In this document: in pieces, positions 3,737 through 29,098 of the stretch
How positions within the stretch are numbered: position 1 is the stretch's first letter
Layout: every line of letters starts with the position of its first letter
IMG/VR virus record: IMGVR_UViG_3300047476_000672
Coordinates: 1-52,300 of that record
Strand: one strand, 5' to 3'
DNA: 52,300 nucleotides
Origin: a virus
Taxonomy: Duplodnaviria; Caudoviricetes
The notes under the pieces: generated by a model
Told to the model about the DNA's origin: nothing
What the model saw: the letters and a program-made list of their open reading frames with translations, nothing else
Databases searched by the model: none
Position numbers and translations under genes: made by a program

Positions 3737-4555
3737 ATGCAGTACTTTAATCTCGGTGGAGGAAATAGTATTAGAATAGCTTCTGGAACGGCTGCTCCTA
3801 CAGTCGACCCAGACGCACAAGCATTCATCACAGCAGCAGCTATAACAGACCCTACACAACAAAGTGCGGTTAATCAGTTGGTTGTTGACTTGAAAACTTA
3901 CGGTATTTGGACTAAGATGAAGGCAGTTTATCCGTTTGTAGGCGGTACTGCTAGTCAACATAAGTTCAATCTTAAAGACCCTAGAGATTTAGATGCTGCG
4001 TTTAGGTTAGTATTTAATGGTGGATGGACGCATTCAGCAAATGGAGCGCAGCCAAATGGCGTTAATGGATATGCTGATAGTAAATTCATTCCTTCAGTAA
4101 ATCAAAGTTTAAATAGTAATGGATTAGGAGTTTATATTACTCAAAATAGTTCAGCAACATCAGACCCTGTGACAATTGGTGTTTTTCAAAGTATTAGTCA
4201 AGCAAGTACACTTGTAGTAAATCCAACAACTGTAATTTCAAGATTAAATGGAGAGCCATTTATTTCTGGAACAATAAGTGGAGGTTTAGGTTCATTTGAT
4301 GCTCAAAGAACAAGTTCAACATTAACAAAAATATATAAAAATTCAACCGTAATAAATAGTGGAACATCAAGTGGTTCTCTTTCTGTATTTCCTATTTATT
4401 TAGGAAATATGAATTTTAATATGACAACCTATGGATTTGTAAACTCTCAATTTAGGTTTGCATATTTTTCAGACGGATTAAATGATACAGAAATAGCTAA
4501 TTTAAGGATTTCCGTACAAACATTCAATACTACGTTAAATCGCCAAATACCTTAA
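3737..4555 (+). CDS. putative lectin-like (ConA/LamG-type) receptor-binding or decoration protein
   Basis: 272 aa; DPDAQAFITAAAITD...GIWTKMKAVYPFVGG...FNLKDP N-terminus typical of aquatic phage proteins; beta-rich C-terminal half. Confidence 0.5.
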   Translation: MQYFNLGGGNSIRIASGTAAPTVDPDAQAFITAAAITDPTQQSAVNQLVVDLKTYGIWTKMKAVYPFVGGTASQHKFNLKDPRDLDAAFRLVFNGGWTHSANGAQPNGVNGYADSKFIPSVNQSLNSNGLGVYITQNSSATSDPVTIGVFQSISQASTLVVNPTTVISRLNGEPFISGTISGGLGSFDAQRTSSTLTKIYKNSTVINSGTSSGSLSVFPIYLGNMNFNMTTYGFVNSQFRFAYFSDGLNDTEIANLRISVQTFNTTLNRQIP

Positions 4556-8412: not shown

Positions 8413-8642
8413 TGTAGTTCTACGTTTATTCTTATGTTGATGTTCCTAAATGCTTTGTTAATTTTCTTTAACGTAAGCAACCCATGAACGCTTTTACCAT
8501 CTTCGACTAGCAGAAGTGTCTTTTCTGACATACCAATACGTTTAGCGAATGGCTCTGCGTGCATTTTAACATACTGTATACGTATCATCTCAACCATTTC
8601 GCCAATATCTTTGGCCGTCATATCTACTAAATACTCATCCAT
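8409..8642 (-). CDS. XRE/Cro-like helix-turn-helix protein
   Basis: IGEMVEMIR...FAKRIGMSEKTLLLVEDGK pattern. Confidence 0.6.
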   Translation of the reverse strand: MDEYLVDMTAKDIGEMVEMIRIQYVKMHAEPFAKRIGMSEKTLLLVEDGKSVHGLLTLKKINKAFRNINIRINVELQ

Positions 8643-9019: not shown

Positions 9020-9084
9020 AAATATTTGACTCAATTGTTTATCCTTATGTTGGGTTTCCGTTGAGTCATTACCTCCCAAATTTG

Positions 9085-9172
9085 TGGAGCAGACAGGATT
9101 CGAACCTGTAACAGGGACTTAAAGGAATTCTACACTCTAAGTTTGTTTGGCGACCAATTCCGCCACTGCTCC
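9085..9172 (-). ncRNA. tRNA-like element with extended non-canonical anticodon arm
   Basis: Acceptor GGAGCAG/CTGCTCC, D arm GGCG-GAATTGGT-CGCC, perfect T arm ACAGG-TTCGAAT-CCTGT. Confidence 0.65.
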
Positions 9173-23950: not shown

Positions 23951-24838
23951 TTATGCTCCTAGACCCCATTCTTTTTTACAGTCATTACAGATAAAGCAAT
24001 TGTATTCGTGAAAGTAACTAGACTTTACATCTCTATCGCAGCAATCGCAACCGCTAACTTGATACTCTTCGTTCAATGCTTTGTCTGATTCCATGCACCA
24101 ATCGCATTTACCATTGTTTATCTCATTGATTCCGTATAGTTTTATATCGCAGTTAGTACATGAGTAAAAATCTTCTTCCTCATCTAGCCACATTGAACCT
24201 GCTGAATGATAAGTTGACTGTGTTTTGGGTGTGTACGCCCATGCGTTATATTGATTCTTGTAAACTTTTTTGCCTCCATAATCAACATAATTGTTTACTT
24301 GCTTATAAGATGAATTACTAAACCAACAATCCATATTCCAATGACCGGCTTTCTCGTTAACAATTCTGTATTCATTATCTGAATTAAGGAATACTAATTT
24401 AGAACCTTGACCTATATATAATTCAAGCATATCCATGATTACATCATTGTACTCAAATCCATCTTTCATATTCTTAAGTATTGTCTCATTGAACATATAA
24501 GTATCTGAAAAATCTTTGCTTGTTGGTACATCGTAAATCATTCCGTTATGGACAAAGCCTAAGTCATTATTAACTAAGAATGGGTGACAATTTGTTTTAT
24601 TTACCTTGCCATGAGTACTGATACGGAAATGTAAAACGATATTGTTTTTACCGTATTTTCTTTTGATGTCAATGTAGTTGGAATAAAAGTTCTCAAAAGA
24701 TTTCATTTCCTTGAACACTTGCATTTTGTTATTGTCAATGTAAAGTATTCCCGCACCATCGCCATTGTTTTCCCAACAGTTAGATAAAATATCTTTTGAT
24801 AATGTTGTTTTCTTCGTGTTTAAAATTGCTATACACAT
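23951..24838 (-). CDS. class II (Ntn) glutamine amidotransferase with C-terminal CxxC pairs
   Basis: N-terminal MC nucleophile, NGDGAG, HFRISTHG, NCHPF, HNG, SDT. Confidence 0.9.
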   Translation of the reverse strand: MCIAILNTKKTTLSKDILSNCWENNGDGAGILYIDNNKMQVFKEMKSFENFYSNYIDIKRKYGKNNIVLHFRISTHGKVNKTNCHPFLVNNDLGFVHNGMIYDVPTSKDFSDTYMFNETILKNMKDGFEYNDVIMDMLELYIGQGSKLVFLNSDNEYRIVNEKAGHWNMDCWFSNSSYKQVNNYVDYGGKKVYKNQYNAWAYTPKTQSTYHSAGSMWLDEEEDFYSCTNCDIKLYGINEINNGKCDWCMESDKALNEEYQVSGCDCCDRDVKSSYFHEYNCFICNDCKKEWGLGA

Positions 24839-24865
24839 GATTTCCTTTTTTAAAATGATTATTAA

Positions 24866-26353
24866 TTATGCACCTAGTTGGTTAGATGCGTTTTCTATTG
24901 TGTCAACTTTTACTTGTGACCTGATTAGTTTAGGTAATTGCTTATCGTTAAATGATTGACTATATTTTATGAACAATTCTACTTTGTCAATTAACTTTTC
25001 TTGTGAATATACAAGACGTAAATGTTTGTAAAGTTTACTCTTTGGATTCATCATCATTTGAAGTATTTCGATTTCGGATAAACCTTTGTAGTAAGATTCG
25101 AATCCTTTAATCTTTGTTTCTTTGATTGAAGAACACATGATACGTAGTAAATCCCTGCGCCACAATAAGTTAGTAACATTCTTTACTGCACTTGGTATTC
25201 TAAATTCAAGAACATTTGATTTGATATATACTGCTGAATACTTATCAGAAGAATATTTGTAGCTATGTTTCTTTCTTGCCTTAGAATAATTTGTTTCAAT
25301 CCTATGTTCATACATTGAATAGAACAATGGCAACCAACCTGATAAGTGTTCGAACAATGTTTCTGTATCGAATAAGCTAGAAGCTACATTGATATGACCG
25401 CCACATGAAGATGAAGTATTCGCATTGATTAATGTTTGCAAGTCTGAATCTTTAGCTATTTCGTCCTCAAGGTCTGATGAATAAAGGTCAAATGCTGGTG
25501 TTACAAGTTCGTATCCGCTACTGTCACAAAGAGAACCATCTTTTTCTTTAATCCAATCTGTTCTGTCGTAAAGGTCTTGATATTCTATTTCCACCGCATT
25601 ATCATCTTCCTTTTCTATTTCAAAACCAATTGAAAACTTAGGTGCTTCGTCAAATCTTTTTGTTCTTCTAAGGTCATGGTAACTAGCATTTTTTTCTATT
25701 GGATAGTCTTCATCAGTATACCATTCGTCATGACCTTCGTGGTATATTAAGCCATGATACCTAGCTGCGTCAGAATCCATATAGTTATCGCCATTTATTC
25801 TTAATGGTTGTCCGTAGCTCAATTGAAAATGTGTTTCATAGTCATGACCTTCTACATAACCGTAAAATACATCATCTCTATCTGTCTCAACCATTTCGCA
25901 ATGGTATTCAGAATAAGCAATATCTAGTTCACATTCTGTACTTTCAATGTATGTATTTCCATGTTTTGTTCTATAAACCTCATCAATTGGTGCGTATTCG
26001 TCATTAAGTGTAGCAAATTTACATTCGCTTTTCCAAGCATACTCACCGTTGTACATTTCAACAATAAGTTCGGGGTCTACATTCCTAACTATTTCGCCGT
26101 CATGTAGTACAAATTCATTTTCGAATTGCATAAATTTTTCGTTCCATTCTTGTATCGTTATTACCTGATATTCTTCTGACGGTTCACCAACACAATCTGA
26201 AAACATTACTTCATCGTCATATATGTAGAAACAGTTAACAGAATCTCCAGACCATGAATTGTTAGTCTTTCTGTTTATTAAATCAATGTAGCTTTGAAAC
26301 ATTTGTTTCTCACTAGAATTGAAATTTTCCGAGTTTAAAATTGCTATTTTCAT
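24866..26353 (-). CDS. putative amidoligase (COOH-NH2 ligase, glutamine synthetase/GCS2-like fold)
   Basis: IGFEIE, KDGSL, GYELVTP, SCGGHINV, KYSAV, LEFR motifs. Confidence 0.8.
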   Translation of the reverse strand: MKIAILNSENFNSSEKQMFQSYIDLINRKTNNSWSGDSVNCFYIYDDEVMFSDCVGEPSEEYQVITIQEWNEKFMQFENEFVLHDGEIVRNVDPELIVEMYNGEYAWKSECKFATLNDEYAPIDEVYRTKHGNTYIESTECELDIAYSEYHCEMVETDRDDVFYGYVEGHDYETHFQLSYGQPLRINGDNYMDSDAARYHGLIYHEGHDEWYTDEDYPIEKNASYHDLRRTKRFDEAPKFSIGFEIEKEDDNAVEIEYQDLYDRTDWIKEKDGSLCDSSGYELVTPAFDLYSSDLEDEIAKDSDLQTLINANTSSSCGGHINVASSLFDTETLFEHLSGWLPLFYSMYEHRIETNYSKARKKHSYKYSSDKYSAVYIKSNVLEFRIPSAVKNVTNLLWRRDLLRIMCSSIKETKIKGFESYYKGLSEIEILQMMMNPKSKLYKHLRLVYSQEKLIDKVELFIKYSQSFNDKQLPKLIRSQVKVDTIENASNQLGA

Positions 26354-26746: not shown

Positions 26747-27016
26747 TTATAGATTATTACTTGCTTCTTCGTAGGTCTCGAAAAACATTTCTTTACGAGT
26801 TTCAAAGTCTATTGTTAAATACTCAACTTCTTGTCCCAACATTGAGCATATTGATATACCATTCTCAAGGGCAATGTAAGTGTATCCGCTATTCGGATTA
26901 AAGCCGATTTGCATAATTGATTCGCCTGAACAATTTTCAGCATAAGCATTGAAACAATTACTCAAACCTTTTGCCTCACAAAAAGCAATTGATTCATTTA
27001 AACCGATAATTTCCAT
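26747..27016 (-). CDS. hypothetical protein
   Basis: GFNPNSGYTYIALENG...E.FF.TYEEA. Confidence 0.7.
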   Translation of the reverse strand: MEIIGLNESIAFCEAKGLSNCFNAYAENCSGESIMQIGFNPNSGYTYIALENGISICSMLGQEVEYLTIDFETRKEMFFETYEEASNNL

Positions 27017-27027
27017 GATATTTATTT

Positions 27028-27210
27028 TTAATTATTAAACTGTTTCATCTTGCTATCTATGTATCCCAAAAATGACAATACAGATAAGCCCAAAGAGCCA
27101 TAGGATAACATAAAATTTTCAACGTATCCGAATATATTTACACCTACATTACTGAAAAATAAGGTAGTGCTAACAATCGCTAACACTACCGACAAGATTA
27201 AATATTTCAT
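27028..27210 (-). CDS. small two-TM protein
   Basis: 60 aa, hydrophobic. Confidence 0.6.
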   Translation of the reverse strand: MKYLILSVVLAIVSTTLFFSNVGVNIFGYVENFMLSYGSLGLSVLSFLGYIDSKMKQFNN

Positions 27211-27230
27211 TTCCTTTTTAGCTTGATTAA

Positions 27231-27602
27231 TTACTTTGTTGCGTAATATTTCTTAATTAATAAACACATTTCGTACACGCTGAAGCCCTCTTTTTGAGCA
27301 TTCTTTTCTGTTCTTAATGGTATTAAGTTTTTCGGCGTTAAATCGGCAACATTAAAGCCTTTTATACCTGCAAAAAATTCATCGCCGAATTCAATTACAC
27401 GCTTAATACAGTATGAAAAACTTTTCCCGTCTTGTTTATGCGCATTGTTTGTAGCATAAATTGCCGTCATTAAACTTTTTCCCGTTACTCCTTCATTAAG
27501 ATACCTTACTGCCTCTTTTGTTTTGTTGTTTACTACTTTTGTACCTTTTGCGATTTTAGTAGTAGTTACTTTTTTTCCGTTTGTTTTTACATTTGCTTTC
27601 AT
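27231..27602 (-). CDS. basic hypothetical protein, first gene of the leftward arm
   Basis: Start reassigned to MKANVKT at 27602; the tracked extension overlaps the ribozyme. Confidence 0.7.
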   Translation of the reverse strand: MKANVKTNGKKVTTTKIAKGTKVVNNKTKEAVRYLNEGVTGKSLMTAIYATNNAHKQDGKSFSYCIKRVIEFGDEFFAGIKGFNVADLTPKNLIPLRTEKNAQKEGFSVYEMCLLIKKYYATK

Positions 27603-27632
27603 AATAATTAAACTTAAATAGTTTAAATAATA

Positions 27633-27690
27633 AATTCCGTTTCGTCCTTTTGGACTCTTCAGGCAGGGCACTCACCCCACTACGGAAATT
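27633..27690 (-). ncRNA. hammerhead ribozyme, type III
   Basis: UUCCGU-A-GUGGGG-UGAGUG-CCCUGC-CUGAAGA-GUCC-AAAA-GGAC-GAAA-CGGAA: full core, three stems, GUA cleavage triplet. Confidence 0.93.
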
Positions 27691-27927
27691 AGTCTTACCG
27701 TCTTTTATACATTGCCGTTACACGTGATTAAGTGGCTGCATTTTTACCACAGTCTTTCGTTATTAATTACTCGCATTTCGCTTTCCAAAATAACTACTCA
27801 AGCCCTCGATTAAATGTACTTTATTAGTTATCGACTTTTATCGTATTAACATGCGGCTAATATGTCCCGCCCTCTACGCTTACCTAACCTTTCAAACATT
27901 TAGCGTTTCGCCGTTTGTTTGATGAAG

Positions 27928-27935
27928 CAAATATA
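27928..27935 (-). promoter_or_regulatory. -7 promoter box for the leftward (early) arm
   Basis: TATATTTG with an AT-rich upstream region. Confidence 0.6.
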
Positions 27936-28762
27936 AGAACATAAAATTTAATTAAACAAGAAAAAAATTAAAATTGTCAAAATAAAACGATAATTGCCTG
28001 AAAATCAATAAGTTATAATTCGATAAAAAATAGCTTGTAACCTAGAAAATAGGGTGAAATCGGGTTGAAGTTTTTAATTAAGCGCATTGAATGTTTACAC
28101 AAATAACAGTCAAAACTAGGTGATAAGATAGAAGAGTAGTACTCATAACCGTCTATAAATCAAGTAGTTAGGTCTATCTACTTAAAGCTTTGGATAAACT
28201 AAGCGAAGCTAATTAGCTGAAAGCTAGTAAGATATGTAAAGGAATATGAATGAATAGCTAACAAGCAAAGGGGCAAAGGGCAAACGGTGAAAGAAAGCCC
28301 GAAAAAAAGATAGTTAGCGCAATACATTTAGTATTTTCAGGGGTTCGGTTTTCCTTTTGAGAAGGGGAGGGGATATAGTACCACGAGTACTACCCTAAAA
28401 AACACATACTTTTTTCTGGACCGGAGGGTTATAGTTACGATATTGGCATATGGGGGTTAAATAAATAGGGGGAGGGATAGTAGTACTATAGGTTAGTATA
28501 TACGATATGAATATTTTTGTAGATTATCGTTTAAGGTTACGTTCCGTTAGTGTCGCTTCATTAGTCATTAGTCGGTATACTGCGTAACCGCCTAACGATA
28601 ATTACATCATTGATTTTCTCAAGTTGCACATGGGGAATAAACATATATAGGAGTTTTTTCTTAATTGATTGATTATTAATAAGTTAGGTGTGTAATTAGT
28701 GGTAACAGACTGTATCTAGCGATTAGTGGTAACACTTTAAAAGAAAAGTGTATTAATTTAAT

Positions 28763-28770
28763 TATCTTTG
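28763..28770 (+). promoter_or_regulatory. -7 promoter box for the rightward arm
   Basis: TATCTTTG 22 nt before the ATG at 28793. Confidence 0.55.
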
Positions 28771-28792
28771 CTTGTCTTATAAAAGGTTGTAT

Positions 28793-29098
28793 ATGATTAG
28801 TAAGGGAGGTATAGACTTGAGTGTCTGTATGTATTGTAAGACCTCTTTGGATGAGTATTCGAGAACGGTAGACCATTTGTATCCGAAGTCCAGGGGAGGC
28901 AAGTTAAGCAATGACAATAAGGTTCCTTGTTGTGGAGACTGTAATAAGTTGAAGGGGAACATGAGTATTGTTGAGTTTAGCAATGCTTTAAATTCTTTTA
29001 TATTTTTTAATCACCGGAGCATTTCTCATTTAAAGAAGATAAAGAGGAATGTTGATGAGTTGATTGAGTCTAGGAAAACTTCTGGTAATGGAAAATAA
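28793..29098 (+). CDS. HNH endonuclease
   Basis: CMYC...TVDHLYPKSRGG...NKVPCCGDCNKLKG. Confidence 0.9.
   Translation: MISKGGIDLSVCMYCKTSLDEYSRTVDHLYPKSRGGKLSNDNKVPCCGDCNKLKGNMSIVEFSNALNSFIFFNHRSISHLKKIKRNVDELIESRKTSGNGK

Follow-up and report, generated by a model that had tools for sequence, protein, structure and literature searches.

What might a self-cleaving RNA do for the DNA phage that encodes it? Hammerhead ribozymes have been known in bacteria and phages since 2011. The question is raised here by one of them on the minus strand of a linear virus record of IMG/VR, 52,300 bases long and by estimate 77% complete, which was analysed over its whole length and is called the window hereafter. 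The kind is already in print, since phage hammerheads have been described, including one that precedes an early halovirus transcript (PMC3088659). In the excerpted text of that work, prophage examples flank genes, cleave in vitro and in E. coli and were proposed to process polycistronic RNA, and haloviruses HF1 and HF2 carry a hammerhead 13 nt ahead of the opening ORF of an early, polycistronic transcript, whose mapped 5′ end falls within 3 nt of the cut. The function of genome-encoded phage hammerheads is still called open in passages of two reviews (PMC6765202 and PMC6155905), and extracts of a 2026 report present type III as typical of infectious circular RNAs and type I as typical of bacteria and phages, with DNA-phage hammerhead matches set aside as already described (PMC13725137). 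For the window, we consider it probable that the element works as a compact type III hammerhead, placed where a long leader comes to its 3′ end, 34 nt before the first gene of a non-structural arm, where it likely defines the 5′ end of the mRNA. Its parts are as follows.

27634..27688, minus strand: complete type III hammerhead ribozyme; the span is that of the Rfam RF00008 alignment, supported by fold and descriptor
27682..27687, minus strand: 5′ strand of stem III, UUCCGU, with U27682 as U16.1; read from the letters and paired in the folds
27683-27681, minus strand: cut triplet GUA; read from the sequence
27681, minus strand: H17, an A; predicted cut 3′ of this base, between 27681 and 27680, from the sequence and the Rfam alignment
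27663..27680, minus strand: stem I hairpin, GUGGGG (27680-27675) with CCCUGC (27668-27663) and loop 1 UGAGUG (27674-27669); from sequence, fold and covariation
27656..27662, minus strand: core strand CUGAAGA (C3 to A9; N7 is A); from the sequence and the Rfam alignment
27644..27655, minus strand: stem II hairpin, GUCC (27655-27652), AAAA (27651-27648) and GGAC (27647-27644), in which G10.1-C11.1 closes the core; from sequence, Rfam alignment and fold
27643-27641, minus strand: core GAA, that is G12 A13 A14; from the sequence and the Rfam alignment
27640-27635, minus strand: 3′ strand of stem III, ACGGAA, partner of 27687-27682, with A27640 as A15.1

The preliminary description had claimed a complete type III hammerhead with all invariant core bases, cut between 27681 and 27680 at 78 nt upstream of the ATG at 27602. 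Every element that it listed is indeed present at its position, the cut agrees with both the sequence and the Rfam alignment, and G27680 to A27602 measures 78 nt. The conserved core is found in full (C3 U4 G5 A6 N7 G8 A9, G12 A13 A14, the A15.1-U16.1 pair and an H17 other than G), and the pairs that close the junction are intact, namely G27655-C27644 (10.1-11.1), G27680-C27663 (1.1-2.1) and A27640-U27682 (15.1-16.1). In the Rfam alignment as well as in the fold, stem III is open and stems I and II are closed by loops, which is the type III topology. Hammerhead cleavage leaves a 2′,3′-cyclic phosphate on the upstream product and a 5′-OH on the downstream one, and a cut at 27681/27680 would place the cyclic phosphate upstream and the 5′-OH on G27680. 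The helices, with 6, 4 and 6 pairs in stems I, II and III, agree with the acceptance criteria given in the excerpts of PMC3088659, which call for three helices around the core and exclude mispairs beside it. Two adjacent G.U pairs among the six of stem I were counted against a functional reading.

The Infernal search with Rfam hammerhead models that the preliminary description had proposed gave a divided result. RF00008 (Hammerhead_3) aligned end to end over 27688-27634 with 37.1 bits, at an E-value of 2.5e-6 in 701 bases and of 1.9e-4 in the whole 52.3-kb window, within which this was the sole ribozyme match of the Rfam scan. On the other hand, the score does not reach the RF00008 gathering cut-off of 48.5 bits, so that the site is absent from a default Rfam scan; the cut-off is a database threshold, not a feature of the ribozyme. 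The minimum free energy (MFE) and centroid folds of 27690-27633 are both the exact three-way hammerhead junction (-19.7 kcal/mol, z -2.72), an equally good fold being reached in 2 of 200 shuffles. Moreover, a type III descriptor, run on both strands, picked out a single site in the window and had no match in 300 shuffles that preserve dinucleotides. In the fold of the 331-nt leader, stems I and II are kept and stem III is displaced by long-range pairs in the MFE structure, a point that was counted against the ribozyme.

The search was then widened to IMG/VR viral contigs with a pattern made of the core, a fixed stem II and a fixed inner stem III. It returned 93 stretches with 98 matches in those loci, comprising 56 compact type III hammerheads of the build seen in the window, 5 doubtful cases and 37 other arrangements. 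The 56 kin sites and the window together amount to 42 distinct sequences, a set filtered by requiring at least three outer stem I pairs, in which stem I is paired in 98.4% of cells and shows compensatory change at 6 of 6 pairs. Over the whole structure 94.1% is paired, against 31-45% with slid partners, stem II and the inner stem III being fixed by the search pattern and their pairing thus carrying no information. Two letters of the window were counted against it, as the triplet is GUA in 5 and N7 is A in 3 of the 42 distinct members. Loop 1 begins with U in all 42, several of them having the UGAGUG of the window, and loop 2 is mostly NAAA. A tertiary contact between loops 1 and 2 is needed for fast hammerhead cleavage at cellular Mg2+, and the recurrent loop sequences are compatible with a conserved contact of this type. 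A Rfam scan of nine kin loci gave 11 Hammerhead_3 matches of 37.2-48.4 bits, none at or above the cut-off; they recovered eight of the nine pattern-defined sites (the one at L058:655-709 was missed) together with three further ones. Since all 11 are sub-threshold, the low score of the window is a property of the subfamily, and judged by its sequence the window ribozyme is a member of a populous compact type III family in viral contigs. The families dealt with here may already figure in the lists or figures of phage hammerheads in the supplements of PMC3088659.

Two side observations belong to this survey. Type I hammerheads (stem I GGUUAA) and type III hammerheads occur within one phage contig in L007 (11735-11764 and 13457-13511) and in L002. 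Two tiny records classed as viral, L023 (366 nt) and L036 (377 nt), carry a type III hammerhead near to this subfamily, its stem II being identical and its triplet GUA; in size and ribozyme they would resemble viroid-like satellite RNAs.

The surroundings of the ribozyme in the window comprise the following features.

27231..27602, minus strand: first gene of the leftward arm, encoding 123 aa with a Lys/Thr-rich disordered N-terminus and an all-alpha domain; its start is supported by homologs
27603..27634, minus strand: A/U-rich spacer from the ribozyme to the start codon, without a Shine-Dalgarno-like motif; read from the sequence
27603..28771, no strand assigned: ORF-poor region of about 1.17 kb between the divergent arms; from the ORF map, with a similar gap in kin
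27689..27920, minus strand: upstream leader that cleavage would release, its 5′ end approximate; RNA-library contigs lie on 27691-27911
27928..27935, minus strand: candidate -7 promoter box TATATTTG (TAnnTTTG type), conserved in aligned kin leaders

The ribozyme is co-oriented with the 123-aa gene and lies directly upstream of it. Residues 1-28 of the protein are Lys/Thr-rich and predicted to be disordered, and residues 30-123 form a compact all-alpha domain in the AlphaFold2 model (pLDDT 73); the protein had no Pfam or PHROG match, no Foldseek match in the PDB at E<=0.001 and no usable match in the ESM Atlas. Between this gene and the divergent arm, the only minus-strand ORFs of at least 40 aa are 28199-28327 and 28676-28876. 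The ribozyme had been placed at the head of a leftward arm of roughly 19 kb, and so it is: the 123-aa gene leads an arm of about this length, which ends near 8635. This arm encodes a DnaB-type helicase, an Erf/Rad52-type annealing protein, a MazG-type pyrophosphatase, a glucosaminidase, a class-II glutamine-amidotransferase-like protein and a 495-aa protein, and the rightward arm a metallophosphoesterase, a terminase-like protein and a portal. From the gene content of both arms, the ribozyme heads the non-structural arm; the leftward genes fit an arm of replication or other non-structural functions, and its 'early' timing is plausible from this gene content, which holds no timing information of its own. 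Among cultured phages, blastn of 27200-28200 gave no match, and tblastn gave none for the 495-aa protein; its matches to the terminase-like protein (687 aa) covered no more than 28% of the query, with identities of just 23-39%.

An extension of the 123-aa ORF to a GTG at 27671, which would overlap the ribozyme, was also considered. Three homologs (L096 and L098 among them) start at the same Met-Lys as the ATG at 27602, so that the longer form is not supported.

Other elements of the leftward arm deserve mention in their own right. The 495-aa protein lies near Amidoligase_2 clusters in the ESM Atlas, which is a lead only; it and the adjacent glutamine-amidotransferase-like protein, which together occupy 23951-26353 on the minus strand, have distant homologs, of 22-28% identity, in many hammerhead-bearing viral loci. 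A type III hammerhead stands within tens of nucleotides after the amidoligase-like gene in L037, L076 and L093, and about 90 nt before it in L026 and L082. At 9084-9172, also on the minus strand, ARAGORN predicts a tRNA of 89 nt whose anticodon, UUA, may make it a suppressor of UAA; against the Rfam tRNA model it reaches 35.1 bits, with an insertion of 36 nt. Translation table 11 leaves the large ORFs of the window open, and recoding is not evident.

Is the ribozyme kept in place among relatives? Positional conservation had been put forward as a check, and the outcome was negative, with a type III hammerhead at the orthologous site in none of the kin loci examined. Four loci with the 495-aa protein (48-49% identity) have no Hammerhead_3 match, either locally or in their whole records, one of which is 94% complete. 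The 123-aa protein retrieved no related loci as a single query; an alignment query retrieved 15 loci with homologs of 42-68% identity. In 12 of the 15 the Rfam scan had no ribozyme match, and the other three are among the records with the 495-aa protein, also negative. With no type III match across the kin loci, the window ribozyme is not conserved in place. The ORF-free gap before the homolog is present in 11 of 13 loci examined, where it measures 0.9-1.4 kb.

A hammerhead core was first recognised in the aligned kin leaders, and a type I descriptor was then run, giving 7 matches in 78.6 kb against 4 in 100 shuffle sets. Canonical type I hammerheads precede the 123-aa homolog in four loci (L102:2402-2470, L105:2310-2378, L109:2284-2350 and L113:2360-2428), ending 19-27 nt before its ATG. 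Four of the type I hammerheads found by the descriptor were folded and have the hammerhead junction as their MFE structure, and stems II and III differ by compensatory changes. The same type I element is present with U4 changed to C in L106 and L107, and L104 has a C.A pair at 10.1/11.1, which makes four canonical and three variant hammerheads before the homolog among the 15 loci, type III being found in the window only. In L095 a type I hammerhead lies 25 nt before a different gene of the same arm, after a small upstream ORF. A focused Rfam scan of L102 returned only a partial type III alignment of 17.4 bits; as Rfam is blind to the four type I-bearing kin loci, a negative cmscan in kin is weak evidence.

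In three further relatives the place of the kin hammerhead is taken by a conserved three-way junction without a hammerhead core (L099:2330-2400, L103:2330-2400 and L108:2339-2409). It consists of a 6-bp closing stem and two hairpins, with four compensatory pairs among the three sequences, and is followed by the flank UAACCAAU as in kin; it matched no Rfam family. L101 has at about 2385-2455, some 20 nt before the ATG of the homolog, a tRNA-like acceptor stem and T-arm (T-loop UUCGAAU) with a degenerate middle. ARAGORN found no tRNA on the kin leaders; it makes no call on L101 at the default or at 80%, and a tRNA appears only once the thresholds are lowered to 70%, with other coordinates. We treat the likeness of L101 to a tRNA as no more than a lead. 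On inspection, the leaders of L110-L112 had no recognisable element.

Some observations were made in passing on these loci. In L102 (2402-2470 and 2879-2952) and L105 (2310-2378 and 2783-2855), type I copies bracket the 123-aa homolog, the second copy following right after the stop codon. The bracketing copies have identical stem I halves, GGUUAA/UUAACC; if cut at both, the transcript would give up an RNA of this one gene, with ends able to pair again. Circular or spliced products are raised as a possibility for phage hammerheads in the excerpts of PMC3088659. The DUF805b RNA motif (RF02914) scores above its gathering cut-off at L101:4450-4482 and at 4104-4136 in both L106 and L107, 1.3-1.6 kb downstream of the 123-aa homolog.

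The relation of these ribozymes to the gene that follows was measured over both families. An ATG of an ORF of at least 40 aa occurs 10-45 nt after the ribozyme in 42 of the 56 type III kin (median 26), compared with 13.7% of random positions in the same loci; in the window the spacing is 34 nt, counted from the end of ...GAAACGG to the ATG. Upstream, a co-oriented ORF of at least 60 aa is found in 52 of the 56, usually ending 8-65 nt before the ribozyme, two others having an opposite-strand ORF and two none in the locus. Most kin are thus intercistronic, and the position of the window copy behind a leader is the exception. For type I, a pattern with stem I GGUUAA was found in at least 120 viral stretches, and among the matches listed 133 of 150 type I core matches are full type I hammerheads, in 107 loci. 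Among these same listed matches, 111 of the 133 would be cut 15-40 nt before the ATG of an ORF of at least 40 aa (median 22), against 9.3% of random positions. As a side observation, the listed matches also include dense arrays, with five type I cores in 1.7 kb at L175:1258-2933 and four in 1.5 kb at L184:3733-5199, which would chop the transcript into very short pieces.

What lies upstream of the cut in the window is a leader behind a candidate promoter. T-A-T-n-T-T-T-G is invariant in eight of eight aligned kin leaders, in a region that is otherwise poorly conserved. The window shows no enrichment of the TAnnTTTG box, with 81 sites where shuffles have 69 +/- 8; as the motif is common in AT-rich DNA such as this, its weight lies on conservation and not on occurrence. 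We infer that 27935-27928 acts as a promoter, which would give a leader of about 320 nt, with some 240 nt upstream of the cut. A sigma-70 scan of the window found 7 sites for 8.2 expected and no terminator-like sites, and is uninformative. Shine-Dalgarno-like 4-mers precede 6 of 62 ORFs in the window, compared with 9.5% of random positions, and the regions upstream of its ORFs are 44% A. The window combines TAnnTTTG boxes with a lack of Shine-Dalgarno sequences, a combination typical of Bacteroidota.

Two metatranscriptome runs of one study (X1 and X2) contain short contigs about 95% identical to the window on 27691-27879 and 27720-27911; contigs of RNA libraries are no proof of transcription, and the ends of the RNA are not visible in them. 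The X1 contig departs from the window at 27691/27690, which is the 5′ edge of the ribozyme, with 15 unlike letters beyond, and by this comparison the nearest strain in the RNA libraries may lack the ribozyme. No X1 or X2 contig lies on 27000-27690 or 27912-28360, hence none over the ribozyme or the cut; as contigs drop rare sequence, these holes are not interpretable. An exact 34-mer of the leader had no match in viral or metagenome contigs, and DNA of the strain with about 95% identity was not found there. The fold of the 331-nt leader is no better than that of shuffles (z -0.69), which gives no evidence for a global leader structure.

How the element would work can be proposed from these parts. 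Transcription would start about 240 nt upstream of the cut, from the promoter whose -7 box at 27935-27928 is conserved in kin, and the 55-nt ribozyme would presumably fold as soon as it is transcribed. It would then cut after A27681, with the chemistry known for the class, and the leader would depart with its 2′,3′-cyclic phosphate, leaving an mRNA that begins with the 5′-OH of G27680. Owing to the type III topology, nearly the whole ribozyme would stay on the mRNA, whose new 5′ end would be base-paired in stem I and followed by the unstructured A/U-rich spacer and then by the AUG. The gain would likely be a 5′ end that is defined, near the start codon and rid of leader and 5′ triphosphate; translation would be insulated from leader structure and the RNA protected from 5′-end-dependent decay, as with the engineered insulator RiboJ. 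Type III and type I elements alike would give a 5′ end near a start codon, which favours a role in defining or protecting the 5′ end of the mRNA, and trimming a long leader off the mRNA is most likely what the ribozyme of the window does.

This reading has to be weighed against others, beginning with doubts about activity itself. It is very improbable that the site owes its likeness to chance, or has decayed, and does not cleave. It falls short of the Rfam gathering score and is not kept in place among kin, and some kin copies look damaged (U4-to-C in L106 and L107, C.A at 10.1/11.1 in L104); yet all invariant bases and junction-closing pairs of the window copy are intact, it matches a covarying family, and neither the E-value of 1.9e-4 for the window nor the absence of matches in 300 shuffles is what a look-alike would give. 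An active ribozyme might instead be a selfish or neutral cassette, moved among phage genomes by recombination and persisting without benefit to the gene. Its distribution is patchy, the same site being type III, type I, variant or non-hammerhead in sibling phages, the strain with about 95% identity diverges exactly at the 5′ edge of the ribozyme, and almost the same ribozyme turns up in phages with only 22-28% identity between their shared proteins. We hold such a cassette to be improbable in view of the tight and non-random spacing to start codons (75% for type III and, among the matches listed, 83% for type I, against 14% and 9%), of the cores that are intact in most copies, and of the surroundings of the site, which hold neither flanking repeats nor transposition genes.

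Other explanations accept a function and place it elsewhere. The 5′-OH product of the glmS ribozyme is degraded by RNase J1, and by analogy cleavage could lower expression, with a 5′-OH product that decays faster and cleavage that is perhaps conditional. Regulated cleavage is indeed raised for phage hammerheads in the excerpts of PMC3088659, and alternative long-range pairing can displace stem III in the leader fold. However, a new 5′ end paired in stem I would be a poor substrate for a 5′ exonuclease, the window ribozyme has no ligand-binding extension, and its engineered analogue raises stability according to the excerpted text of PMC7536230, so that a lowering of expression has little likelihood in our estimate. 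It is rather unlikely, too, that the ribozyme serves its upstream product, freeing some 240 nt of leader as a separate, stable non-coding RNA that ends in a 2′,3′-cyclic phosphate, and affecting the mRNA only secondarily. The lineage is marked by leaders of 320-490 nt that follow a conserved -7 box, those of L099, L102, L103, L108 and L113 have conserved blocks in common, and the RNA-library contigs of the region lie only on the leader, at 27691-27911. Yet RNA ends are not visible in those contigs, the leader of the window resembles only that of L101, without the conserved blocks of the others, and folds no better than shuffles (z -0.69), and across the family the tie is to the downstream start codon, 52 of 56 kin ribozymes having a co-oriented ORF upstream and thus mostly following a coding gene and not a leader.

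Definition of the mRNA 5′ end, the preferred reading, may be extended to the lineage in a tentative way. It is possible, though we would not put it higher, that selection acts on a processed RNA 5′ end 20-35 nt before the start codon in a lineage without Shine-Dalgarno sequences and with TAnnTTTG boxes, the site being filled interchangeably. With the same reserve, the fillers might be the type III hammerhead of the window, the type I hammerheads of L102, L105, L109 and L113, their damaged forms in L104, L106 and L107, the three-way junction of L099, L103 and L108 and the tRNA-like element of L101. If true, hammerheads would be natural makers of 5′ ends near start codons, in the service of translation or mRNA stability, and a concrete, testable function would be at hand for those of phages.

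Comparison with known systems sets the window ribozyme apart in several respects. It shares with the type III family RF00008 the full catalytic core, the three helices, the open stem III, the capped stems I and II and an end-to-end alignment, and differs from it in loop 2 (4 nt against a consensus of 8), in a loop 1 that is 5 nt longer, in the GUA triplet and the A at N7, in being encoded in a DNA phage and in its 37.1 bits against a cut-off of 48.5. The HHphage of HF1 and HF2 also immediately precedes the opening ORF of a polycistronic, non-structural transcript, whereas in the excerpted account it is a structural variant related to the high-Mg2+ form, in an archaeal virus and 13 nt from the start codon (PMC3088659); the cut in the window is 78 nt from the ATG, and the body of the ribozyme would stay on the mRNA. 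Prophage hammerheads, of which the ardA triple of Agrobacterium tumefaciens is one case, likewise belong to phages, run in the direction of their genes and were proposed to process long transcripts; they flank genes, as do most kin of the window, whose own copy is single and lies in a leader behind a divergent promoter region (PMC3088659).

A likeness of working, as opposed to family, exists with RiboJ, in which a 5′ UTR hammerhead cuts off the leader and leaves a structured 5′ end on an mRNA that is more stable once cleaved and whose expression is normalised (PMC7536230). In the parts of that article drawn on here, RiboJ normalises the 5′ UTR, most variants have an in vivo cleavage efficiency of 0.84-0.94, and uncleaved RiboJ mRNA is modelled with a twofold faster decay. 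Unlike the window ribozyme, RiboJ is engineered, has an added 23-nt hairpin and was used in E. coli only; the RiboJ-like anatomy fits the window ribozyme, for which an insulating effect on expression would follow by analogy. The viral type I hammerheads with stem I GGUUAA/UUAACC occupy the orthologous site in L102, L105, L109 and L113 and share the proximity to a start codon, whereas they are circularly permuted, their body stays on the upstream fragment, the mRNA receives a bare leader of 18-26 nt, and there is no sequence continuity with the window ribozyme beyond the core. Taken alone, the locus is one more example of a phage hammerhead, and its interest comes from its context, which adds three things. 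In two large viral families the distance from hammerhead to start codon follows a strong rule, one orthologous site carries ribozymes of different topology in different phages, and the Rfam thresholds or models used here miss a whole type III subfamily and a type I family. The three together make a simple test of function possible.

The divergent intergenic region has, finally, features apart from the ribozyme. Two exact 13-nt direct repeats stand 27 nt apart at 28695-28734 of the window, and a similar repeat pair, GTTACCACC, is found in kin at L096:1100-1140. C-rich blocks resembling CCCCTCCC occupy 28340-28480 and are partly kept in L095, which aligns with 28415-28348 of the window at 75% identity. 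These intergenic repeats and C-rich blocks may be operator or origin sites.
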